Source: a virus. From it: a stretch of 64,000 bases of DNA. Position numbers and translations under genes: made by a program. A model generated the notes under the pieces. It had not been told where the DNA came from, ran no database searches, and saw nothing but the letters and a program-made list of their open reading frames with translations. The stretch is taken from IMG/VR virus record IMGVR_UViG_3300028591_000144. One strand, given 5' to 3'. Within the stretch, counting starts at the first letter, position 1. Each line of letters begins with the position of its first letter. This document shows positions 536 through 56,125 of the stretch, piece after piece.

Positions 536-580
536 TTTTTAATGGGGAGAGAAAAAATATCTCTACCCATTATTTTTATG

Positions 581-628
581 CGCGCCATTTTCGTGCGTAC
601 CTTACGAAAATGGCGCGATTTTTCTTTT
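581..628 (+). terminator. Rho-independent terminator (GCGCGCCATTTTCG...CGAAAATGGCGCG, then a T-tract)
   Basis: Perfect 13-bp stem followed by TTTTTCTTTT, directly read from the sequence. Confidence 0.7.
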
Positions 629-712
629 ATATACAATATGCACAATTTTTCCAGGATATATTTGTGCAAAATGCCATCTTGCATTTTTCCTGATAATATG
701 ATATATTATACT
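629..712 (+). promoter_or_regulatory. Early promoter/operator module, copy 1 of 10 (TGTGCAAAATGCCATCTTGCA operator-like palindrome overlapping the -35 TTGCAT; -10 TATATT)
   Basis: The ~85-bp element recurs at 1949, 2884, 3644, 4569, 5386, 5938, 6640, 8345 and 9381. Its core is TTGTGCAATATGCCATATTGCATTTTTCC, which contains the perfect inverted repeat TGCAATATG-C-CATATTGCA. Confidence 0.65.
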
Positions 713-737
713 TACAAAAAAGAAAGGAAGAAAAAAA

Positions 738-1883
738 ATGAACTACACTATGATTCGTGACAAGAATATGCTCCGCTTTACTTCTGATAATAATAAGAAT
801 TATACCTTTGATATTAATACTGGCATTTTTTATGGTATTTCTAACAAGCCTATTAAGACTCTCCCGACTGGTATGAGCACATGGCTGAATGATAATAAGC
901 ATGGGACAAATGCTCTTTTTCTTCTGGATTCTATTCGGCGCAATTACTGGCGCTATAATACCCCTATGCATAGCATGCCGAACCTGACTCAGATTGCTAA
1001 TAACTTTGGCAAGTATTTCAATCTGGTTGATCGGATTCAGAGTGTTGGCTATGTTGTTAATGATAGTTATGATTTTGATTTGGCAAGTCTTGATTATGTT
1101 GCTGAACATTTCAAAGTGTTTGCAAAATATATTAAAGAATTGCCAGAAGAAAGAAAGCGCAATTGTATCCGCCGTTTCATGTCAGATATGGGCGCAGAGA
1201 TTTTTGCGGAATCTCACAACCTTACTATTAATGAATATCTGAATGAAACCATGATTAGTGAAATTGCAGATTTTTGTAGGAGAAATCCTAAATATGATAC
1301 TCCGCAGTATGTCTCTTTGATTGTCTATTATATGACTCGTGGGCTTTGTGAGTTTCTTTCTTATCCTGAAGATTCTGAGTCTATTTATAAATTTGGCAAA
1401 GGACTTACATATATTTATAATTACTTTCAGATGTGTGAAGCTCTTGGTATTGTCCCTCAGAAAGAAAATTTCTTTAGTAGTTACATTAAAGTAATTAAAG
1501 AGTATCGGCTTAATAAAGAAAAGATCGACAATAAAAAAATTACAGATCATTACGCAAAAACTAATCTGTATTTTGAGGATGATAATTTCTTTACCTATAT
1601 TCCTCAGAGTCAGGAAGATTTTAAGCGTGAGGCTGATGCTCAGTCGAATTGTGTTTACTCTATGTATATGAAACAAGTTATGAAACATTCGACAAGCGTA
1701 GTTTTTGTCCGCAGGAAAGATGCTCCTGATACTTCGCTTATTACTTGTGAAGTTTCTAATACTGGGGAAATCTGGCAGTATCTTGCAAGATTTAATCATA
1801 GAGTACCAGAGAATACTCCTGAGCATGACTTTTATCTTAAATATAAGTCTTGGCTTAATAATAATTTTAAGACTGAGTGGTAA
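738..1883 (+). CDS. Hypothetical protein, 381 aa (possibly PcfJ-like)
   Basis: Long ORF with a strong RBS (AAGAAAGGAAG). Sits in its own promoter-terminator cassette. The PcfJ resemblance is only an impression from the C-terminal region. Confidence 0.7.
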   Translation: MNYTMIRDKNMLRFTSDNNKNYTFDINTGIFYGISNKPIKTLPTGMSTWLNDNKHGTNALFLLDSIRRNYWRYNTPMHSMPNLTQIANNFGKYFNLVDRIQSVGYVVNDSYDFDLASLDYVAEHFKVFAKYIKELPEERKRNCIRRFMSDMGAEIFAESHNLTINEYLNETMISEIADFCRRNPKYDTPQYVSLIVYYMTRGLCEFLSYPEDSESIYKFGKGLTYIYNYFQMCEALGIVPQKENFFSSYIKVIKEYRLNKEKIDNKKITDHYAKTNLYFEDDNFFTYIPQSQEDFKREADAQSNCVYSMYMKQVMKHSTSVVFVRRKDAPDTSLITCEVSNTGEIWQYLARFNHRVPENTPEHDFYLKYKSWLNNNFKTEW

Positions 1884-3599: not shown

Positions 3600-3640
3600 T
3601 TCCTCGGCGCACGTTCCTTGCGCTGAGGAAGCGAGTTTTC
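3600..3640 (+). terminator. Hairpin terminator CTTCCTCGGCGC-ACGTTCCT-TGCGCTGAGGAAG (third of three hairpins after 3534)
   Basis: Inverted repeats read directly. The loop is shared with other early-region terminators. Confidence 0.7.
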
Positions 3641-3643
3641 GAT

Positions 3644-3728
3644 ATTGTATAATATGTACAATTTTTCTAAGATATTTTTGTGCAATATGCCATATTGCAT
3701 TTTTCCTGATAGTGTGTTATATTATAAA
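3644..3728 (+). promoter_or_regulatory. Early promoter/operator module, copy 4
   Basis: TTGTATAATATGTACAATTTTTCTAAGATATTTTTGTGCAATATGCCATATTGCATTTTTCCTGATAGTGTGTTATATTAT. Confidence 0.65.
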
Positions 3729-3783
3729 AGCAATAAGGAATGATGATAAACCTATTGACATTAAAAAAAATGAGGTAAAAAAA

Positions 3784-4476
3784 ATGGACATGCCTAAGGT
3801 TGAATTGACAGAAGATTCTCGTATTATGATTATTGATACTGAAACGACCAACAGTCTCGATGATCCTGTAGTCTATGATGTTGGTTTTGAAGTTTTTGAT
3901 CTAGCTGGGAACACCTATGAGTCTTGCTCAATGATTAATACAGAGGTTTTTAACGACCCCTCTTTAATGAGTACTGCTTATTATGCCGATAAGATTCCTC
4001 TGTATATGGATAAAGTTTTGACTGGTCAAAGTGTTATGATTCCTTGGAAATCAATCAAAACTACTATTCGTAATAGCATTGAGCGTAATCATTGTGAGGT
4101 AGTGTGCGCACATAATGCAAGGTTTGACTGTAAGTCTCTTAATTTGACTCAGCGTTATATCACCACTTCTAAATGGAGATATTTTCTGCCTTATGGCACG
4201 CAGTGGTGGGACACTCTTAAAATGGCAAGAGAAATTCTTAAGCAGGATTCTAATTACCGGCAGTTTTGTCTTGATAATGGATATGTAACAGCAAAGAATG
4301 TTTCTAGATATACTGCTGAAGTCATTTATAGATATCTTTCTGGTGAAAATGATTTTAATGAAGCTCACATGGGGCTTGACGATGTGCGTATTGAAAAAGA
4401 AATTTTTCTTTATTGTATGCGTCAGAATCCAGAAATTGATGGGCGTCTGTGGAAGCCTAAAGATATTCTTGAATAA
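3784..4476 (+). CDS. DEDDh-family 3'-5' exonuclease, paralogue 2 (about 85% identical to the protein of 2096..2791)
   Basis: Same IIDTETT, CAHNARFD and HMGLDDV motifs. The promoter module and leader (CCTATTGACATTAAAAAAAATGAGG) are duplicated with the gene. Confidence 0.85.
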   Translation: MDMPKVELTEDSRIMIIDTETTNSLDDPVVYDVGFEVFDLAGNTYESCSMINTEVFNDPSLMSTAYYADKIPLYMDKVLTGQSVMIPWKSIKTTIRNSIERNHCEVVCAHNARFDCKSLNLTQRYITTSKWRYFLPYGTQWWDTLKMAREILKQDSNYRQFCLDNGYVTAKNVSRYTAEVIYRYLSGENDFNEAHMGLDDVRIEKEIFLYCMRQNPEIDGRLWKPKDILE

Positions 4477-4519
4477 TATATAAAAGGAGAGTGTATTTTT
4501 TATACACTCTCCTTTATTT

Positions 4520-4567
4520 GGCGCTTCCTCGGCGCACGTTCCTTGCGCTGAGGAAGCGAGTTTTCGA
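4520..4567 (+). terminator. Hairpin terminator GCGCTTCCTCGGCGC...TGCGCTGAGGAAGCG plus TTTTCG
   Basis: Preceded by a second hairpin, AGGAGAGTGTAT-TTTTT-ATACACTCTCCT. Confidence 0.7.
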
Positions 4568-4568
4568 T

Positions 4569-4650
4569 GTTGTATAATATGTACAATTTTTCCAGGATAT
4601 TTTTGTGCAATATGCCATATTGCATTTTTCCTAAAATCTGTTATAATAAT
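4569..4650 (+). promoter_or_regulatory. Early promoter/operator module, copy 5 (-10 TGTTATAAT, extended)
   Basis: TTGTATAATATGTACAATTTTTCCAGGATATTTTTGTGCAATATGCCATATTGCATTTTTCCTAAAATCTGTTATAATAATG. Confidence 0.65.
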
Positions 4651-4709
4651 GACTGTAAGGGAAACGAAGGTACTCCCTAACGAAATTAAAAATTAAGGAG
4701 ATTTAAAAA

Positions 4710-7971: not shown

Positions 7972-8000
7972 TTGACATAATATCTTTTTTTTGTTATAAT
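7972..8000 (+). promoter_or_regulatory. Consensus sigma70 promoter (TTGACA-17-TATAAT)
   Basis: -35 at 7972-7977, 17-nt spacer, -10 at 7995-8000. Immediately upstream of the RBS and ATG at 8038. Confidence 0.7.
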
Positions 8001-8037
8001 GACCACAGAAACCAAGAGAAAAGGAGAGTACAGAAAA

Positions 8038-8133
8038 ATGACTTGGACTTTTATAATTTTGGGTACAATTATTGGATGTTTATGCGGCATGGCCGTATAT
8101 GTACAGATTGAAGAGTGGAAGGATCGACATTGA
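8038..8133 (+). CDS. Small hydrophobic peptide (31 aa, MTWTFIILGTIIGCLCGMAVYVQIEEWKDRH)
   Basis: Perfect RBS AAAAGGAGAG 8 nt upstream, consensus promoter, single predicted TM helix. Below the track's 60-aa cutoff. Confidence 0.5.
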   Translation: MTWTFIILGTIIGCLCGMAVYVQIEEWKDRH

Positions 8134-8279
8134 TGGATACTTATATTACTCTTACTATCCTTTTAGTTTTAAGTATATATGGCATTTATCATCTTCTAAA
8201 AGCTTTTGCAGAGCATGAGCAATTAGAAAAGCGCCAATTTTTTAAACCATTACCTCAATATAAAGGGAAGGATAGATAA
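8133..8279 (+). CDS. Small hydrophobic peptide (48 aa, MDTYITLTILLVLSIYGIYHLL...), start overlaps the previous stop (ATGA)
   Basis: Translationally coupled with 8038..8133. Followed by two hairpin terminators at 8264-8335. Confidence 0.45.
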   Translation: MDTYITLTILLVLSIYGIYHLLKAFAEHEQLEKRQFFKPLPQYKGKDR

Positions 8280-8344
8280 AAATCCTTCCCTTTAAAACGC
8301 TTTCTTGTCGGGCGCTCACCCCGGCAAGAAAGCGTGTTTGACTT

Positions 8345-8432
8345 ATTGTATAATAAATGTAATTTTCCAGGCGATCTTTTTGTGCAATATTCCATCTTGT
8401 ATTTTCCGAAAAACCTGCTATAATAATAAGTG
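8345..8432 (+). promoter_or_regulatory. Early promoter/operator module, copy 9
   Basis: TTGTATAATAAATGTAATTTTCCAGGCGATCTTTTTGTGCAATATTCCATCTTGTATTTTCCGAAAAACCTGCTATAATAATAAG. Confidence 0.6.
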
Positions 8433-8522
8433 TCAAGAGGGAGAGGCGCCGAGCCGCAAGAGTTATGGTTTATCTGCGCGGTTGCCAAAGCCATAAAAGA
8501 AAAATAAAATGCCGAAAACCTC

Positions 8523-8551
8523 TTGACAAGCCACTGAAAATGTGGTATAAT
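8523..8551 (+). promoter_or_regulatory. Consensus sigma70 promoter with extended -10 (TTGACA-17-TGGTATAAT), member of tandem array 1
   Basis: CCTCTTGACAAGCCACTGAAAATGTGGTATAATGAATACAGTCAAGAGG. The promoter is framed by the inverted repeat CCTCTTGAC/GTCAAGAGG. Confidence 0.75.
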
Positions 8552-8633
8552 GAATACAGTCAAGAGGGGTGGTTGGAGCCCATACCCCACGACCGCAAGG
8601 CCAAAAATTTTCAAAGAAATTTGAAAAACCCTC

Positions 8634-8662
8634 TTGACAAACCACACAATGTGTGCTATAAT
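8634..8662 (+). promoter_or_regulatory. Consensus sigma70 promoter (TTGACA-17-TATAAT), array 1
   Basis: -35 at 8634-8639, -10 at 8657-8662. Same CCTCTTGACAA framing. Confidence 0.75.
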
Positions 8663-8809
8663 AAGTATGTAAAGAGGACAGGGGAGAACGCAAGATAGAA
8701 ATTGGGACTTGCTAATGACCCTCCTCCCCCTCCTCTAAACATAAGCCTTGCCGTCGCTAAAAGGCATGAGAATCTGGCGACAAAAAAATTTAGTAAAGAG
8801 GTTGATACT

Positions 8810-9163
8810 ATGTCTACTAAGAAGATGTCCTATGTTGTTGCTGTTGAGAACGCTATCAATGGCAAGATTGATGATGAAGTCATTGAGCGCCTGACTGCGC
8901 TGAAGGCTTCGCTGGAGAAGCGTGCTTCGCGCAAGTCCGAAGGCCCCACCAAGGCGCAGAAGGCTAATGCTGAGCTGGCTGAGCGTATCGCTAATGCGAT
9001 GGTCGCTGGCACTGTCTACGATACCGAGAGTATCAAGGGGCTGGTCGAGGAACTGGCGAACGCCACTCCGCAGAAGGTGTCTCCCCTGATGAAGCACCTT
9101 GTTGCTGAGGGTCGTGTGACCTCTGAGAAGGTCAAGGGCAAGGCTACTTACACCCTTGCCTAA
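8810..9163 (+). CDS. Small basic protein, family A paralogue. Unusually GC-rich.
   Basis: Shares KRASRKSEGPTKAQKANAEL and the GKATYTLA C-terminus with the protein of 6174..6539. Codon usage is strongly G/C-biased compared with its neighbours. Driven by the promoter array at 8.4-8.7 kb. Confidence 0.75.
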   Translation: MSTKKMSYVVAVENAINGKIDDEVIERLTALKASLEKRASRKSEGPTKAQKANAELAERIANAMVAGTVYDTESIKGLVEELANATPQKVSPLMKHLVAEGRVTSEKVKGKATYTLA

Positions 9164-9193
9164 GTAAAAGAGGGGGACTTCCCCCTCTAAATA

Positions 9194-9305
9194 AAAAATC
9201 TTGCCCTTACATGGGCGCAGGGTGGAAGAGCCACGAAACTACAAGTTGCTCTTGCTTGTAATGTAGTGCCACTAAACTGCGTCAATGTAAGGGCAAGATT
9301 TTTTA
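9194..9305 (+). other. Long perfect hairpin (15-bp stem ATCTTGCCCTTACAT...ATGTAAGGGCAAGAT around a ~75-nt GC-rich loop). A structured RNA or elaborate terminator.
   Basis: Read directly. Flanked by the hairpins AAAGAGGGGGACTTCCCCCTCT (9168-9192) and TTTCTCGCTTGCTCAACGG...CGTTGAGCAAGCG (9325-9372). Confidence 0.5.
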
Positions 9306-9380
9306 TTTAAAGTTAAAAGAGTAGTTTCTCGCTTGCTCAACGGTGGTGCGCCATCGTTGAGCAAGCGTCTTTATCTTTTT

Positions 9381-9462
9381 ATACAAATTGCACAATTTCC
9401 AAGTAATATATTTGTGCAATATTCCATCTTGTAATTTTCCTGAAATCTGCTATAATAATAAG
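9381..9462 (+). promoter_or_regulatory. Early promoter/operator module, copy 10
   Basis: ATACAAATTGCACAATTTCCAAGTAATATATTTGTGCAATATTCCATCTTGTAATTTTCCTGAAATCTGCTATAATAATAAG. Confidence 0.6.
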
Positions 9463-9594
9463 TGTCAAGAGGGGACGTCGCCCAAAAGGGACTCCTCTGG
9501 GAGATAAGGATTGCTTGTGAAACCTTACTGCACTGTGGAGTAACAAGAACCAAATGGGACTTGAAAAATGTTGCAGTCTTTTTCAAAAAACCTC

Positions 9595-9623
9595 TTGACA
9601 AACCCCACGGAATGTGGTATAAT
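9595..9623 (+). promoter_or_regulatory. Consensus sigma70 promoter (TTGACA-17-TGGTATAAT), tandem array 2
   Basis: CCTCTTGACAAACCCCACGGAATGTGGTATAATAAAAGTGTCAAGAGG. Confidence 0.75.
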
Positions 9624-9713
9624 AAAAGTGTCAAGAGGGGAACCGAACAGGACAAGTAAGGCACCGCGGATGACCCCAAAGCGACGAGAGGTTGATAAAA
9701 GTTTAAAACCCTC

Positions 9714-9742
9714 TTGACAAACTATACAATGTGTGCTATAAT
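9714..9742 (+). promoter_or_regulatory. Consensus sigma70 promoter (TTGACA-17-TATAAT), array 2
   Basis: CCTCTTGACAAACTATACAATGTGTGCTATAATAAGAATGTCAAGAGG. Confidence 0.75.
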
Positions 9743-9857
9743 AAGAATGTCAAGAGGAATAGACCGAAACCTCCTGTGGAAGAGTTTCAAAAGTGGGAAT
9801 ACAAGGGCCTCCCAAACACTCAAAAAAATAATTGCGCAATAAAATTTGAGAAACCCC

Positions 9858-9886
9858 TTGACAAGCCTTAAAAAGTATGGTATAAT
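9858..9886 (+). promoter_or_regulatory. Consensus sigma70 promoter (TTGACA-17-TGGTATAAT), array 2, closest to the 9922 gene
   Basis: CCCCTTGACAAGCCTTAAAAAGTATGGTATAATAAATATAG. Confidence 0.75.
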
Positions 9887-10392: not shown

Positions 10393-10689
10393 TTAAAAAA
10401 TAATGAAATTTTACACACAAAAAAGAAGCAATAGGTAACAAAGTTGTAATTCCCATTATCGCGGCTCGCAAGCGACCGCAGGGAGCGCAGCGATGCCGAA
10501 ATTTTCATTATACCATATTTTACAAATTTTGTCAACTGTTTTTTTGCACAAATTTCTTCGAAAATTTTTCCCATTTTTGTGCATAATGCCGAATTGTTAA
10601 TTAATTAACTAACAATCTGTAACCGTTTTGTAACTATTTGTTTCCAGCTTGTAACTTTTACCTTAAGCCAGCCCTTCCGCGGCGAATGA

Positions 10690-10930
10690 CCTAAAAAATA
10701 CCTATAAAGCCCTCGCGCGGTGACAAAAGTCGACCTCTAACTAAGCGCCCTATGGCGCAACAAATCAACTCTGGTCCGGCTGCCCGAGGACAACCTAGCC
10801 CGGGGACAAATATCGACCTAGCAAAACTCTATAAAGGCCCGGGGTGGTGACAAAAGTTGGCCTTCTAGATAACAAAAGTAGCATTTTCCTGAAAGTATAA
10901 CGCCGCAACAAAAGTTGACTTTTTAAAAAA
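10690..10930. repeat. Four or five dispersed copies of GGTGACAAAAGTYGRCC (GGTGACAAAAGTCGACC, GGGACAAATATCGACC, GGTGACAAAAGTTGGCC, GCAACAAAAGTTGAC)
   Basis: Read directly. Spacing is 40-60 bp. Confidence 0.55.
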
Positions 10931-10945
10931 AATTTGATATAATAT
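10913..10945 (+). promoter_or_regulatory. Class-2 phage promoter TTGACTTTTTAAAAAAAATTTGATATAATATT. It drives a short structured transcript rather than a CDS.
   Basis: Followed by the hairpins CCTCTTTTTTTGAGG and CCGCACG...CGTGCGG and then a T-tract. Confidence 0.55.
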
Positions 10946-11099
10946 TAAAAAAACCTCTTTTTTTGAGGCCGCACGCTCTTTAAACCGCCTGGTCTAAAAT
11001 CTCTGAACCGTGCGGCTATTATTTTTAGTCGAGCGGTCGATAAACGACAGTCGATTATAGAACAATTCCTGCTGTATCAACCTCTCTGCATTAATCAGT

Positions 11100-11700
11100 A
11101 TATATGTAACATTTTGTTACCTATATACAGTCACATAGTAACATTTTGTTACTTATATTTAAAACGACATTTTTGTCACCATTTTACGACATTTTTGTCG
11201 TTTTTAATTATCCGACATTTTTGTCGCAAAAACGACATTTTTGTCATATACACTGTTATTACGACATTTTTGTCGTTTTATTTAAAACGACATTTTTGTC
11301 GCCAGCACATCTTAATAAAACGACAATTTTGTCGTTTTCAGCAACAATTTTGTCACACCCTACTGTATAATAGTAACATTTTGTTACCTTCTAAGTAACA
11401 TTTTGTTACCTATACACAGTCATATAGTAACATTTTGTTACCTACAAAGTAACATTTTGTAACCATTTAGGTAACATTTTGTTACTTACACGCAGCACAA
11501 TAGTAACATTTTGTTACTTAAATTAAGTAACATTTTGTTACCATAACACCGTCATATAGTAACATTTTGTTACCTTTTAAGTAACATTTTGTTACTCACA
11601 CGCAGCGTAATAGTAACATTTTGTTACCTATATATCACTTATTAAAATAACATTTTGTTACCTATATACAGTCACATAGTAATATTTTGTTACCTGCAAG
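11100..11700. repeat. Array of about 20 copies of the inverted-repeat site GTAACATTTTGTTAC, interleaved at 11160-11360 with about 9 copies of ACGACATTTTTGTCGTT
   Basis: Each unit is a 5-bp arm, a 5-nt spacer and a 5-bp arm (GTAAC-N5-GTTAC, ACGAC-N5-GTCGT). Copies recur every 25-35 bp. Two minus-strand winged-helix genes are adjacent. Confidence 0.8.
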
Positions 11701-11704
11701 TGCA

Positions 11705-11732
11705 TAAAAAAAGAGCGCGCAATCGCGCACTC
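11705..11732. terminator. Bidirectional hairpin AAGAGCGCGCAATCGCGCACTCTT flanked by A- and T-runs
   Basis: It terminates the minus-strand genes 12225-11733. Confidence 0.65.
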
Positions 11733-12038
11733 TTAAAACATATCTACTACTCTTGGTTGATAGTAAAAGTTATATACGTTATTATTCATATCATATACTA
11801 GATAATGCTTATTCTTTAAATCGTTTAAACCTAAATAATATTGACGCTTAGTTATCTTATATTTATCTAGTATCTTTTGAGTTATTTCTAGTTCGCCATT
11901 CTCTTTTGGACTATCTATAATGGCGCAGTATACCAATATACCAGATTTATTTAAAATAGGAAATACTTGTGTATACAACCAAGTATTTGTTATACACTTT
12001 ACATTGTTATTTATTTTTATTCTAATTGCCATATGCAC
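11733..12038 (-). CDS. Winged-helix DNA-binding protein (101 aa). Candidate binder of the adjacent repeat array.
   Basis: The C-terminal segment GELEITQKILDKYKITKRQYYLGLNDLKNKHYLVY has an HTH-plus-wing pattern. This is one of the few minus-strand ORFs, and it sits next to the IR array. Confidence 0.5.
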   Translation of the reverse strand: MHMAIRIKINNNVKCITNTWLYTQVFPILNKSGILVYCAIIDSPKENGELEITQKILDKYKITKRQYYLGLNDLKNKHYLVYDMNNNVYNFYYQPRVVDMF

Positions 12039-12225
12039 TATCTCCTTGGCTGTTCATAATTTCTTTGATAGCCAATAATAATGCATCAGTTCTCTTAAAG
12101 ACCCAAGCAATATAATATTTATTGCGAGGATTCTCTGTGCGACCTATTGGATAAATGCCATAGTCATCTTCTAAAAGCTCTTTTATTCGCTTAGAATAAA
12201 TAACTTTACAATTCGTTCGCATCAT
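12022..12225 (-). CDS. Small minus-strand protein (67 aa). Overlaps 11733..12038 by 17 nt.
   Basis: A GGAGATAGG RBS-like sequence lies upstream on the minus strand. Confidence 0.4.
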   Translation of the reverse strand: MMRTNCKVIYSKRIKELLEDDYGIYPIGRTENPRNKYYIAWVFKRTDALLLAIKEIMNSQGDSAYGN

Positions 12226-12996
12226 TACTACCTATCTCCTACTTAGCATTTTGTTTATATCTATGTATAAACTCTTCTTTGACATTAGCATTTGTTTTGA
12301 TTATATTCAATTATATTCTATAAATATATTATACTATATTTTTTTTTAAAAGTCAACTATCGACCGTCAATCGACTATCGTTCATTGCCCAGTCATTTAA
12401 AAATATACTTCCCCATTATATTTTACCAAAAAATTTTTAAAAAGTCAAATGCGCACCTATATACCGTTATAATTTGACCCTCCTGGCTCTAGATTTATTT
12501 TTATTTGCCTAGCTCGAAAATTTCCTTACACTTTATCATTTTTTCACACAAGTCATAGCTACAGTTCAATACAACTCCATCAGAGCATAAAGCCAAAAGA
12601 GCTCAAGTGTTTAAAAAAATTCCAAGAGAGAGAAAGAAGAAAAAGCGCGCTTCACAGAACTCAAAATCTCTCAGCTCCAGTTACACAAAACTCAAAATCT
12701 TCCAGCTCCAGTGCAGCACCGCAGGAATGAGAATTCCCCAGCTCCAGTTTTATAAAAGAGGGTCTCCCTCCCTCCCACCCTTAATATTATAGCATATTTT
12801 TTTTAAAATTTCAATTGAAAGATTCAGAATTGACATTTTAAGCCGCCCTCTGAACTAAAAATGAACAAGTGTTCGTCCGTAGCTAATTTTAAATGGTAGC
12901 GTCGAAATGTAAATTGTAGAAGCTATTAAAAAGAGAGGCCGGAATCTTTAGAAAACTCCAAAAGGAAGAAAAATGAGGGTTTTGTAGTGCGCAGAC

Positions 12997-13032
12997 TTGA
13001 TTTTTAAAAAAAAATTTGTTATAATATATATA
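12997..13032 (+). promoter_or_regulatory. Class-2 phage promoter (TTGATTTTTAAAAAAAAATTTGTTATAATATATATAG)
   Basis: Motif match. Downstream there is only a 37-codon ORF, so it may drive an sRNA. Confidence 0.5.
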
Positions 13033-13254
13033 GGAAATGAGGAAATGAACTTTGACAGTGGAATATTTTTTGCGGTGGCGGAGACGAGGAATTTTAGAGA
13101 GCCATATAGACGCGGGGGAGCGCAGGGCTGTACTACTAAAAGTACCAAAACTACTTAAAATACCCCTATCCCTTTCCCCCTTATCATTCCTCTTCCTTTT
13201 TTAATAATAATCGTAAACCTTCTATTTCCCTTTCCCTTTATACCTCCGTTAGTG

Positions 13255-13470
13255 TTACCATTCTCTCCGCCTATATTTTCCTTTCCACCATTTGGCTCTC
13301 TTATCTTCATAAACAATTTCCACATCCATAGGCTCCCAGAAAGTATCAATCCCCAGGGCATTACCCCAAGTTCCTGGGTCGCCTCCTCCTTCTTCATTAG
13401 TGCGAATTTTAAGCATATAATCACGTATGCCTGTAAAATATCGCACTATTTTTTTTTGAACGATTTTCAC
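13255..13470 (-). CDS. Hypothetical minus-strand protein (71 aa, GTG start)
   Basis: RBS GGAGGA upstream on the minus strand. The downstream polypurine tract makes the competing 89-aa ORF unlikely. Confidence 0.3.
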   Translation of the reverse strand: MKIVQKKIVRYFTGIRDYMLKIRTNEEGGGDPGTWGNALGIDTFWEPMDVEIVYEDKRAKWWKGKYRRREW

Positions 13471-13559
13471 CAGTCATTCCTCCATTCGTCGAACGATTGT
13501 CGATCGATTGACGACTCCCCCTATGACTGGAAATTCTCTCTCTCGACATATATTTATTA

Positions 13560-13990
13560 ATTACTGCGTTAGCTTTACTTTAAAAAATATTTGGCGATAG
13601 CCTTATATTATATTACTAGATTTATATTATTTTACTACTTCAAAATTATGTTCTATAATATAATCTATAGTAGTATTTATATTATAATCCTACTACTCCC
13701 ATATATCTAATATATAATTACCATCTAACTATAATAAATTACATATATTACTAAATAATTCATATATACTATTTGTTAATAATATTTCATTAGGAGTAGT
13801 ATTATTTTTATCTAACTATATTAATATAATCCAAGTATTTAATATAGTATTTAATATATTTCTTATATTTTGTTCTTTCATATTACCATACCTTTATATA
13901 TTTATTAGATTTATATATATTATATATAATAAAATATATATATTATTATAGTAGTATCTATATTATTATTATATTATATATATTATATAT
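13560..13990. other. Extremely AT-rich stretch (long TA/TAT runs). Candidate DNA-unwinding element.
   Basis: Composition read directly. Lies immediately upstream of the iteron array. Confidence 0.55.
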
Positions 13991-14520
13991 ATATTAATAT
14001 TAATATTACTGGGTTCAGAACTGACCCCATTACGGCTATTTTGCGACACAATTTTATTTAAAAATAGAATATACGACCAGTTGCACGGTCGTGTGATGGA
14101 CGATTGTTTAACGAACGATAGTTTAATAATTATCCTGTGACGATATCTTTGCCCTATGTCTGTAATGGGTTCAAATCTGACCCCAGTCATTTTTGACCCC
14201 ATAACGGTATTGGGTTCAAAATTGGACCCTATTTCCGCTATCAAAATGCAAATTTGAACCCATTACACCTATCTAGGTCAATTCTGACCCCATTACAGTA
14301 ATGGGTTCAAATCTGACCGCATAGATTTTTATCATAGATAATTATTTAACTGGGTCAATTCTGACCCCATTACATACAATGGGTCCAATTTTGACCCCTA
14401 CCACAGTTTAATGGGTTCAGAATGGACCCCATTACCGCTATAAAAGGCCATCTTTGACCCCATTACAGCACATTAAGTGCAATTCTGACCCCATTACCGC
14501 AATGGGTTCAAATCTGCACT
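13990..14520. repeat. Iteron array: 12 or more copies of about 24 bp, (A)ATGGGTTCAAATCTGACCCCATTAC (an imperfect palindrome ATGGGT...ACCCCAT)
   Basis: Read directly. Variants include GGGTTCAGAACTGACCCCATTAC, GGGTCAATTCTGACCCCATTAC and GGGTTCAGAATGGACCCCATTAC. Confidence 0.8.
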
Positions 14521-14530
14521 CCGTTTCCCG

Positions 14531-14863
14531 TTAGAAATCCCATTTCATTTGTGGCGTGTCGTAAAATTCCAACGTCTTTTCGTCGCTTTCTATTAAGTAT
14601 CTTGCCTAAATTAAGTCTTCTTTTGCCCTCTTGAAAGTACTATCACTTATGCCGCATTCCTTCTGGATACGAGCTGGAGACATATCCTCTTCATACCCAT
14701 CTTGATTACTCGCAAAGTATAACCATAATTTAATGCCCCTATCTGATAGCCCACTCTAAAACAATTCTTTAATAGCTTCTACTGTTATTACTGTATAAGG
14801 ATTATCCGTACCAACTTTTCGTTTATGTATTTTAATATGTTTTTGATTAGGATATTTCGGCAC
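14531..14863 (-). CDS. Replication-initiator / replisome-organiser-like winged-helix protein (about 110 aa) with 2 in-frame TAG codons read as sense
   Basis: The minus-strand translation IKLWLYFASNQDGYEEDMSPARIQKECGISDSTFKRAKEDLI(Q)ARYLIESDEK is continuous only if TAG is decoded. RBS AGGTGA plus a GTG start. Lies directly beside the iterons. Confidence 0.5.
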
Positions 14864-14868
14864 TTAAA

Positions 14869-15048
14869 TCACCTGTCTTTCTAACAGACAAGTTCTTCAA
14901 ACACTTTCCTAAATTCGTCCGTATTCTCAAACAACCAACAATTATACTAAGGATATTGCGGATTCGGTGCAACTTTATCAAAAATAAATCCACGTTCCAT
15001 TAATAGCTCTGTTAATTTTTTAGAATACACAATTTGATATTTGCTCAT
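14869..15048 (-). CDS. Small minus-strand protein (59 aa, 2 in-frame TAGs). Either upstream partner of 14531..14863 or its frameshifted N-terminus.
   Basis: RBS GAGGT 9 nt upstream of the ATG (minus strand). Ends 6 nt before the GTG of the next ORF, in a different frame. Confidence 0.35.
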
Positions 15049-15087
15049 ATGTTTGTGTACCTCATCATAGTTTGTTATTTGTGACTC

Positions 15088-15140
15088 CATTTTACAAAAA
15101 AATTTGACTTTTGTCAAAAAAAATTATATAATAAATATAA
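15088..15140. promoter_or_regulatory. Divergent promoter pair sharing the palindromic -35 TTGACTTTTGTCAA. The plus side is a class-2 promoter; the minus side is TTGACA-17-TAAAAT.
   Basis: Plus strand: TTGACTTTTGTCAAAAAAAATTATATAATAAATAT. Minus strand: TTGACAAAAGTCAAATTTTTTTGTAAAAT. Confidence 0.6.
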
Positions 15141-55783: not shown

Positions 55784-56125
55784 GGGGATGTTATGGTTTC
55801 GACATGGTTAGAAGGAAATAATAAGCGAGTAGAGTGTCTACTTTACAGACAAAATTTTTTTATAAATTAAATAACGATTACGAATATCTTTGCGCTGCTT
55901 GATTTATAAGCGGCTGTTCTACTGAGAAGACTACGCATCAGATAGAGCATCGACTAGTAGTAAATGTGAATACGTTATGTCTCGACCGTATCACACAAAA
56001 GAGACTATAGATTTAAGAGTTTGTTAATGGACTTTTAATTTCTAGAATAAAATCATTAACTACACTCGTAGAAAATTGTTTTTAACTAGTTATGGACACG
56101 AGTTCGATTCTCGTCATCTCCACCA
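55784..56125 (+). ncRNA. ssrA: tmRNA (ssrA), about 342 nt
   Basis: The 5' end GGGGATGTTATGGTTTCGACATGG matches the tmRNA 5' consensus GGGGnUGnnnUGGnUUCGACnnGG. The 3' end has T-arm ACGAG-TTCGATT-CTCGT, acceptor CATCTCC pairing with GGGGATG, then discriminator A and CCA. A candidate tag reading frame at about 55871-55903 gives ...NNDYEYLCAA-TGA. Confidence 0.65.

Follow-up and report, generated by a model that had tools for sequence, protein, structure and literature searches.

The 64,000-nucleotide (nt) stretch of DNA analyzed here (hereafter, the window; IMG/VR record IMGVR_UViG_3300028591_000144) is part of a large, uncultured, phage-like genome from the gut, of low GC content (about 33%), and its plus strand carries almost all of its genes. 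Within it, a block of 4.7 kb (10.4-15.1 kb) forms a minus-strand island made up of two paralogous cassettes, A and B, both with the same order: a small DUF5659-like gene, a gene for a stand-alone winged helix-turn-helix (wHTH) protein, and an array of palindromic sites. A first-pass annotation of the sequence had marked this block as a probable replication origin and control locus. The features it described lie where it placed them and are far above chance, and the plus strand between 10.6 and 15.1 kb is, as it proposed, non-coding, with only spurious open reading frames (ORFs). Its counts of about 20 and about 9 copies for two of the repeats were too high, and the palindromic arrays, which it treated as separate from the genes, each lie directly downstream of their own paralogous gene pair. 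The repeat motifs of the arrays are nearly absent from the remaining 59 kb of the window. Chance expectations given below refer to the whole window for GTAACATTTTGTTAC, CGACATTTTTGTCG and TCTGACCCCATTAC, and to a stretch of equal length for the 12-bp half-sites of array A.

The promoter of cassette A lies at 15117-15089 on the minus strand (TTGACA-17-TAAAAT) and overlaps a divergent plus-strand promoter at 15104-15132 (TTGACT-17-TATAAT). A promoter scan gave 11/12 matches for each member of the pair (15089-15132), whose -35 hexamers overlap in TTGACTTTTGTCAA; the palindromic -35 noticed earlier is therefore present and common to both promoters, and the pair is identical in the related phage L023. 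The small gene of cassette A (14869-15048, minus; 59 aa, two in-frame TAG codons) is called as a 59-aa gene in L004 also, and its product is paralogous to the small protein of cassette B (E=3e-7). Neither small protein of the window had a hit to DUF5659 (PF18903; gathering cutoff 23.6 bits) at E<=0.1. The L003 homolog of the cassette A protein gave E=0.02, and the small protein encoded upstream of the wHTH gene in L011 reached 23.0 bits, under the cutoff. Given these borderline scores, the window proteins can be called DUF5659-like only.

The winged-helix gene of cassette A (14531-14863, minus) encodes 110 aa from a GTG start that follows AGGTGA, and contains two in-frame TAG codons. A minority of the window's genes use TAG as a sense codon, and this gene, as the first-pass annotation had claimed, is one of them. 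In comparison with a homolog on contig L003 (73% identity), TAG is exchanged with CAA or CAG at three glutamine positions, indicating that the phage decodes TAG as glutamine.

Array A (14006-14526) begins within about 5-20 bp of the stop codon of the 14531-14863 gene. It holds 19 half-sites TGA(C/A)CCCATTAC, 11 on the plus and 8 on the minus strand (12 bp, <=4 mismatches, 14006-14510; expected 2.4). The half-site unit of cassette A is TGACCCCATTAC, the palindrome is GTAATGGGTTCA-N4-TGACCCCATTAC, and at least seven imperfect 28-bp palindromes are present, with plus-oriented copies about 30-31 bp apart. The motif TCTGACCCCATTAC had 10 matches at <=2 mismatches (expected 0.29). The 24-bp iterons reported earlier beside the minus-strand gene are thus real, but they are half-sites in both orientations that form 28-bp palindromes. 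A gap in the array (14073-14125) contains a hairpin with a 7-bp stem (ACGACCGTGCAACTGGTCGT) and a CGA-rich box (GGACGATTGTTTAACGAACGATAG). The first palindrome is adjoined by a TA-repeat tract (13894-14005), a candidate DNA-unwinding element: in the whole window, no 100 bp are less stable than positions 13908-14007 (97% AT), whose -0.82 kcal/mol per bp lies 4 standard deviations from the mean of -1.23 (standard deviation 0.10). Phased repeats therefore stand directly beside the window's least stable DNA, and two elements of an iteron-origin layout are in place, the phased repeats as candidate sites for an initiator and an AT-rich tract next to them. The wider stretch at 13560-13990, which had been described as almost pure A/T, is AT-rich at 85% A+T, and reaches 97% only at about 13909-14008. 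Most of it is taken up by an 84-codon ORF (13627-13881, minus; four in-frame TAG), called as a gene in the public assemblies L004, L007 and L023. This ORF had no family hits; it is conserved at the DNA level in L023, where about 5 of the 6 codon differences alter the amino acid, and we estimate the chance of such an open frame in DNA of its composition at about 0.1. Whether it codes for a protein is uncertain.

Cassette B is preceded by a minus-strand promoter (TTGACT-17-TATAAT; 12328-12356, promoter scan). Since similarity between the window and L006 begins exactly at this promoter, with other promoter units upstream in L006, and since L024 carries the same foreign units upstream of its cassette B, the cassette is evidently modular. 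Its small, DUF5659-like gene (12022-12225, minus) encodes 67 aa, or 72 aa if a terminal TAG is read through, and its winged-helix gene (11733-12032, minus) encodes 99 aa and has no TAG. Two wHTH genes had been assigned to 11733-12225; the assignment holds for the winged-helix-like 11733-12032, whereas 12022-12225 is a paralog of the small gene at 14869-15048, which had been missed. BLASTP gave no alignment between the 99-aa and 110-aa proteins, and hhalign matched the 99-aa protein to the family profile of the 110-aa protein with a probability of 79% (E=1.6e-5) over 71 columns, including a C-terminal Y-x-F-Y-x-x-P, as for a remote paralog. Homologs of the 99-aa protein at 95% identity exist.

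An intrinsic terminator (11711-11734, minus; -17.3 kcal/mol, z=-3.6, then a U-run) marks the boundary between the genes of cassette B and array B (11106-11693). This array consists of 14 copies of GTAACATTTTGTTAC at <=2 mismatches (expected 0.22), with arms GTAACA and TGTTAC and all centres in one orientation; the array of GTAAC-N5-GTTAC described earlier is real, and 14 is the number that replaces the former 20. Spacing alternates between 22 and 32 bp, i.e., two and three helical turns, and six 47-bp composite units each place two sites around a conserved 17-bp core. Array C (11161-11355) lies inside array B, with two array B sites to its left and twelve to its right, and consists of 7-8 copies of ACGACATTTTTGTCGT (ACGACA-TTTT-TGTCGT). 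The motif CGACATTTTTGTCG occurs in 7 copies at 11165-11334 with one degenerate copy near 11342 (expected 0.35), so that the ACGAC-N5-GTCGT repeats are likewise real and somewhat fewer than first counted. The array C site has one more central T than the array B site, and there is no adjacent cognate gene. On the far side, in a unit at 10915-11057, a plus-strand promoter (TTGACT-17-TATAAT with TG) faces array B and is followed by a hairpin and T-run (10968-11027) and a CGA-rich box (11028-11057). Convergent terminators thus bracket array B, one after the cassette B genes and the other after the promoter at 10915, and would insulate it from transcription on either side. The leader of cassette B contains TTAGCATTTTGTTTA, a degenerate site of the GTAAC type (12243-12257; 11/15 positions). 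Other identities for the arrays were considered and rejected: with palindromes of 15 bp as units and spacers of 7 or 17 bp, the arrays are not CRISPR-like, Rfam gave only spurious microRNA-like hairpin matches, and the palindromes, judged by eye, did not fit host operator consensuses (LexA Cheo box, TnrA, Rex, CtsR).

The 110-aa protein belongs to a family whose profile matches are to replication initiators. Only one homolog came out of a word-indexed search of 5.8 billion proteins; a full HMMER scan of 1.8 billion cluster representatives with that homolog as query found 509 relatives. Among the top 80 homologs, 30 matched HTH_36 at E<=1e-3, 29 matched PHROG 270 ("replication initiation protein"), and 13, 8 and 6 matched DnaD-like and other initiator PHROGs, including RepO-like ones; only one matched a "transcriptional regulator" PHROG. 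Longer homologs (218-380 aa) match initiator profiles across 150-200 residues. HTH_36 proteins are the Rep type of some small plasmids (PMC6209633) and have been located in the replication region of Stx phage (PMC8951638). The three best PHROG hits of the 110-aa protein itself were a RepO-like protein, a DnaD-like loader and a replication initiation protein (E about 2e-4, below threshold), each over the N-terminal ~100 positions of profiles 300-380 positions long. The initiator likeness that the first-pass annotation saw in this protein is thus borne out more strongly by the transitive family link than by direct scores, and its tie to HTH_36 in particular is transitive only. The AlphaFold model of P0001, 73% identical to the 110-aa protein, has a plain wHTH topology (predicted local distance difference test score, 89), with no coiled coil or extra domain.

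The gene-then-array layout recurs in this family. Direct repeats follow the stand-alone wHTH gene in every homologous locus with enough downstream sequence, except L018, and they were palindromic wherever inverted repeats were checked. They lie mostly within tens of bases of the gene (the distance is 270 bp in L017 and about 765 bp in L020), at a spacing of about 21-23 bp, and the site sequence is different each time. L008 and L009 have 4-5 copies of TTATCAATCTGATAA followed by a TA-rich stretch, with two more copies over the gene's own promoter in L008; L013 and L014 have 7 copies of CCTGTCAAAATGACAGG; L015 has 3 copies of TTCGGTAATTTTTACCGAA; L011, with a DUF5659-like gene upstream, has two repeat units (2 sites); and the metagenome-assembled genome (MAG) loci L016, L019 and L022 have 2-3 copies of various sites. 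The arrays of the window are unusually large versions of these. Since the layout recurs with differing sites, as would be expected of co-evolving protein-site pairs, the circumstantial case for binding of each protein to the array after its own gene is strong. With about 31 bp in array A, 22/32 bp in array B and 21-23 bp in the homologous cassettes, the sites stand a whole number of helical turns apart, which is the periodicity usual for iterons.

The plasmid pRGF00006 (L012, HG796773.1), a circular element of 5.2 kb, carries a wHTH-family gene at about 580-934 (minus), directly followed by 3 copies of a 22-bp unit. That gene has six in-frame TAG codons, including those at the invariant PNQK and NQD glutamines, and the Rep3 and resolvase genes of the plasmid are TAG-free. 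The plasmid is thus mixed-code, and its wHTH gene would be translatable only when TAG is suppressed. In-frame TAG in the wHTH gene is confined to close relatives of this phage and to pRGF00006. The MAG homologs are standard-code; selective TAG interruption of the gene in MAG elements was considered and rejected, the TAGs being stop codons or lying upstream of the start. In four of the seven MAG loci (L016, L017, L018 and L021), an HNH-endonuclease-like gene (PHROG 953, 959 or 59) is directly upstream of the wHTH gene. All four are Clostridia MAG contigs. In L016-L018, a J-domain protein and either an integrase or a serine recombinase are encoded as well, and these loci may be small integrative elements or satellites.

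The arrays are kept in related phages, contrary to a condition (repeats absent in relatives) under which the first-pass annotation would have withdrawn its proposal. L023 is about 90-95% identical to the window (about 95% across the array A block) and keeps array A almost base for base, with the TA tract beside the first palindrome rich in indels. In L024, a bovine contig, cassette B is kept at about 81% DNA identity with 16-18 GTAAC sites at the same 22/24/32 spacing, and the counterpart of 10915-11057 retains the hairpin and U-run with different pairing partners. The 15-bp core of array B is nearly invariant over 30 sites in the window and L024, and the flanks of the sites carry little information. 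Because this core is nearly invariant while the cassettes differ by about 19% and spacers drift, and because array A is nearly identical in L023, we take the sites to be under selection. Array C is absent from L024, where array B is continuous and the flanks on both sides match the window, and it is accordingly read as an insertion or deletion. Between close relatives, arrays of sites are gained, lost and resized. As a side observation, public contigs L003, L006, L023 and L025 end at or just before the first array repeats; arrays of this kind fragment short-read assemblies and may thereby leave such loci hidden in metagenomes.

We directly observe the anatomy of the block, the non-randomness of its sites, their helical phasing and conservation, the family relationship of the proteins, and the recurring layout. 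The reading that we tentatively prefer is that the block is an iteron-type replication-origin and replication-control region. Under this reading, dimers of the 110-aa protein would bind array A at its 28-bp palindromes, which follow one another at about three helical turns, and would form a wrapped nucleoprotein complex like the O-some of phage lambda. Stress from this complex would open the TA-repeat tract at 13894-14005, where replication proteins encoded elsewhere, by phage or host, would load. The 99-aa paralog would coat array B, whose 14 phased palindromes would be shielded from transcription, and array B could be a second origin or an iteron-type control or incompatibility locus comparable to P1 incA. 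Array C would represent inserted sites for a third specificity.

Several known systems share parts of this arrangement. The window proteins match the N-terminal part of initiator profiles, the part that in lambda O binds the iterons. Each lambda iteron is an imperfect inverted repeat of 19 bp, and an AT-rich tract flanks the set (PMC7466680). The present locus resembles the lambda origin in its initiator-type N-terminal winged helix (by profile similarity), its phased imperfect inverted repeats and its adjoining, easily melted AT tract. However, lambda has its origin within the O gene, with 4-6 iterons of 19 bp, whereas here the array follows the gene and contains at least seven palindromes of 28 bp together with solitary half-sites; furthermore, the 110-aa protein lacks the C-terminal domain of lambda O that recruits the helicase loader, and it falls short of the Pfam cutoff for Phage_rep_O. 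Repeats about 22 bp apart are also found in iteron plasmids and prophage P1 that have extra iteron clusters for copy control (P1 incA, F, RK2, R6K). P1 incA is a control and incompatibility cluster, a second group of initiator sites outside the origin and downstream of rep, and array B could work in the same way. In contrast, a plasmid Rep protein contains two winged-helix domains and recognizes direct repeats as a monomer, while here a single small wHTH protein is paired with palindromic sites that imply dimers, and two paralogous protein-array pairs are adjacent. In Staphylococcus aureus pathogenicity islands (SaPIs) and other phage-inducible chromosomal islands, where pri-rep is followed by ori, short repeats flank an AT-rich stretch immediately 3' of the initiator gene, and homologous cassettes of the present family likewise occur in small integrase-bearing Clostridia elements. 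The SaPI Rep is a helicase, however, whereas the present proteins have no helicase or primase domain and the MAG neighbors are HNH-like.

We put the probability of the origin reading at only about 0.45, because a number of points weigh against it. The pairing of each protein with an array, and any replication activity, are inferred from sequence. The 110-aa protein is a wHTH DNA-binding domain alone, without a helicase-recruiting part, and no helicase, loader or primase PHROG was found in the 46 TAG-free ORFs of the window. GC skew is negative solely between about 10.4 and 15.1 kb, even across the non-coding arrays, and positive on both flanks, as a bidirectional origin would not give; its sign changes at 10.4 and 15.1 kb, exactly where gene direction switches. 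The skew check named in the first-pass annotation, run here on the 64 kb, thus yields no evidence for a bidirectional origin, although the cumulative skew has a local minimum at about 15.0-15.2 kb, which we count for the origin reading. Since pRGF00006 has a complete Rep3 initiator and iterons of its own (22 bp), the cassette is accessory on that plasmid and apparently not always the primary origin. The genes directly upstream of the wHTH gene in four of the seven MAG loci are HNH-endonuclease-like and not replication genes, and the 14-18 insulated sites of array B would exceed any origin's need, being more centromere- or sink-like. The profile scores are also weak: against Phage_rep_O (PF04492), the 110-aa protein (residues 16-96, profile positions 2-85 of 95) scored 18.8 bits (E=2.3e-3), with a gathering cutoff of 28.7, and against HTH_36 (PF13730) it scored 18.2 bits (E=2e-3), with a cutoff of 25. 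A fold search with Foldseek against the PDB returned generic winged helices only (CvfB, ArsR, TubR, DnaD-N, MarR; all E>0.02) and does not tell apart the winged helices of initiators, TubR or repressors. No DnaA-box cluster was found. Finally, cassette A contains TAG codons, which are typical of late genes in recoded phages; recoding has been proposed to delay late genes, although the use of alternative codes in replication genes is variable (10.1101/2021.08.26.457843). The theta-type origin layout proposed earlier is therefore supported by the phased repeats, the unwinding tract and the initiator-like wHTH protein, and not by skew or by a helicase-recruiting partner.

Some of the same features could be explained by a transcription-control hub, in which the winged-helix proteins are repressors or activators and the arrays are operator clusters or sinks that set the level of free regulator and silence or insulate early units. 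We consider this unlikely, though it deserves to be kept in view. Strong promoters crowd both strands of the block, including the overlapping divergent pair; several homologous loci, such as L015 and L019, have their two or three sites in the intergenic stretch ahead of the following gene, and two copies cover the gene's own promoter in L008; the degenerate TTAGCATTTTGTTTA is in the leader of cassette B; and the fold is as close to ArsR and MarR repressors as to any other protein. Against this, arrays B and C are terminator-bracketed and have no promoters or genes to regulate, array sites are absent from every other promoter in the 64 kb, the upkeep of 14-18 perfect sites is hard to explain as operators, and the family's profiles are those of initiators, with a single regulator match among 80 homologs.

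A further candidate is a centromere-like or genome-positioning locus, whose arrays would be coated by the wHTH proteins in the manner of TubR, SopB/ParB or pSK1 Par, so that genomes are segregated, paired or positioned, e.g., in a carrier or plasmid-like state. Many phased palindromes directly downstream of the gene for a binding protein recall sopC, which has 12 repeats and lies after sopB, and the sopABC/parABS and tubZRC systems in general; TubR is itself a winged helix of ~100 aa and was among the fold matches, albeit weakly (3m9a, E=0.15). Array B is insulated from transcription on both sides, its 14-18 sites are beyond the need of an origin, and the cassette is accessory on the Rep3 plasmid pRGF00006. 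However, no partition NTPase of the ParA, ParM or TubZ type was found by PHROG in the 46 window ORFs, the cassettes or the homologous loci, so that partition sites, suggested earlier for the palindromic arrays, received no support. The proteins have no coiled coil or extra domain, and the family aligns with initiator profiles and has no sequence-family link to ParB, ParR, SopB or TubR. On balance, we regard this explanation as unlikely, slightly more so than a control hub.

A DNA-packaging region, with terminase small-subunit-like wHTH proteins and pac or cos recognition sites as arrays, is very improbable. In its favor, the small subunits of terminases are themselves small wHTH proteins with repeat arrays as their targets, the pairing of HNH and small-subunit genes is known from cos packaging modules (cf. 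the HNH-endonuclease-like gene in four of seven MAG loci), and the unrelated contig L001 has TGTAACATTTTGTTACA repeats beside a gene that is TerS-like by eye only. However, scans of Pfam and PHROGs matched neither protein, nor any of the 80 homologs, to a terminase family, a gene for the large subunit is absent nearby, and two or three different arrays side by side would be unexpected for a single pac site.

Returning to the origin reading, the contrast in TAG content between the cassettes admits an elaboration that we think improbable, namely that they form a replication switch gated by the genetic code. Cassette B, without internal TAG (the sole TAG of its small gene is at the 3' end and may be its stop), would be translatable on entry into a standard-code host, and the 99-aa protein would occupy array B. 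Cassette A needs TAG to be read as glutamine, so that an origin at array A would fire only once a phage suppressor tRNA was active. The TAG positions of cassette A are conserved in L023, and L003 has five TAG. Under this elaboration pRGF00006 would be a satellite sensing infection by a recoded phage, and the gating would be limited to one sub-lineage, since the MAG homologs are standard-code.

Between the cassettes, a variable island of small promoter units on both strands (12357-13560, promoter scan) is replaced by other promoter/terminator units in L006 and L024; a 53-aa ORF (13255-13416, minus) is called in L004 and L023. Four CGA-rich boxes, composed of variants of TCGAC, CGATTG and ACGA, occur at array boundaries and beside the cassette B promoter (11028-11057, 12357-12383, 13487-13516, 14098-14125). 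The box at 11028 is kept in L024 and those at 13487 and 14098 in L023, and the boxes may be sites for another factor. At 10715-10925, three good copies of GGTGACAAAAGTYGRCC (10719, 10797, 10845) and two weak ones (10868, 10905) account for the 4-5 copies of a third repeat reported earlier; they sit in two 49-nt direct repeats within a stretch of 40-42% GC, and their core, GAC-AAAA-GTC, resembles the palindromic -35 at 15104-15117.

Apart from the cassettes and arrays, seven perfect (12/12) sigma-70 promoters with a TG-extended -10 were found (7972-9886, plus; 10535-10507, minus), several of them in tandem and ahead of a conserved start region, GTCAAGAGGGG. An intergenic promoter element of ~110 nt is repeated at least eight times upstream of the block, between about 600 and 9500, and this region looks like an early-gene region using host RNA polymerase. 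The consensus sigma-70 promoters with extended -10, together with the Clostridia MAG contigs that carry family members, suggest that the host is probably a member of the Firmicutes. A segmental duplication (1914-2971 and 3608-4656; 77.6% identity) holds two DEDD-type exonuclease-like genes that match DNA polymerase exonuclease PHROGs, and the gene at 37716-40169 (plus) encodes an 817-aa protein with a major-vault-protein shoulder and repeat domains (E=1e-19), which is unusual for a phage. The window also encodes a tmRNA, a ROOL RNA and a tRNA cluster (55784-56125, 62393-63012, 60103-63973, 56428-56577, 61786-61856), including a tRNA-Arg(tcg) with a 74-nt intron and a weak tRNA with anticodon tca (30 bits). 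No CTA (TAG-suppressor) tRNA was found in the 64 kb, despite the reading of TAG as glutamine; the intron-containing tRNA at 56428 was considered for this role and rejected, as it is the tRNA-Arg.

Near-identical copies of this stretch occur in ENA and Logan assemblies (L004 and L007, 99.96-99.98%; L005, 100%), and there was no close relative among 50,697 GenBank phage records. Megablast of 9-17 kb against GenBank phages gave no matches, nor did tblastn of the 110-aa protein, a homolog and the family consensus against phages; scans of IMG/VR with both wHTH proteins and a scan of JGI metagenomes found no relatives. Alignment-based searches for the locus were unsuccessful, there being no conserved stretch to align. 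An exact-pattern scan for paired GTAACATTTTGTTAC hit only L001 and L002, which are unrelated and of higher GC, and which we rejected as relatives and treated as convergent or chance. Both contain non-coding clusters of TGTAACATTTTGTTACA / GTTAC(A/C)GT motifs beside small DNA-binding genes (L001, 4860-5008; L002, 13440-13780), and the palindrome may there be in convergent use.

Each component of the locus has known counterparts, be it the winged-helix site-binding protein, the phased repeats or the AT tract. In the literature searched, there was no mention of DUF5659, and searches on origins gave classical systems only. We found no description there of a recurring cassette that swaps specificity and joins a stand-alone initiator-type wHTH protein, a DUF5659-like partner and an array downstream, nor of the duplication of such a cassette with arrays this large, nor of its occurrence among TAG-recoded elements. 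Phages, one plasmid and MAG elements with integrase or serine-recombinase genes all carry the cassette, which appears to swap specificity through co-evolution of protein and site. More speculatively, and with low probability, the stand-alone wHTH gene and its palindrome array could represent an undescribed, mobile replicon-control cassette of Firmicutes mobile elements. The origins of uncultured, stop-codon-recoded gut phages have so far been inferred from GC skew alone, and the present locus is a concrete and testable candidate whose proteins and sites are defined. If its replication activity is real, the cassette would supply parts of replicons for genetic work in Clostridia, serve as a marker for locating origins in metagenomic phage contigs and account for assembly breaks at such loci. 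The contrast between a TAG-containing cassette and one without internal TAG gives, in turn, a direct way to ask whether recoding times replication in these phages.

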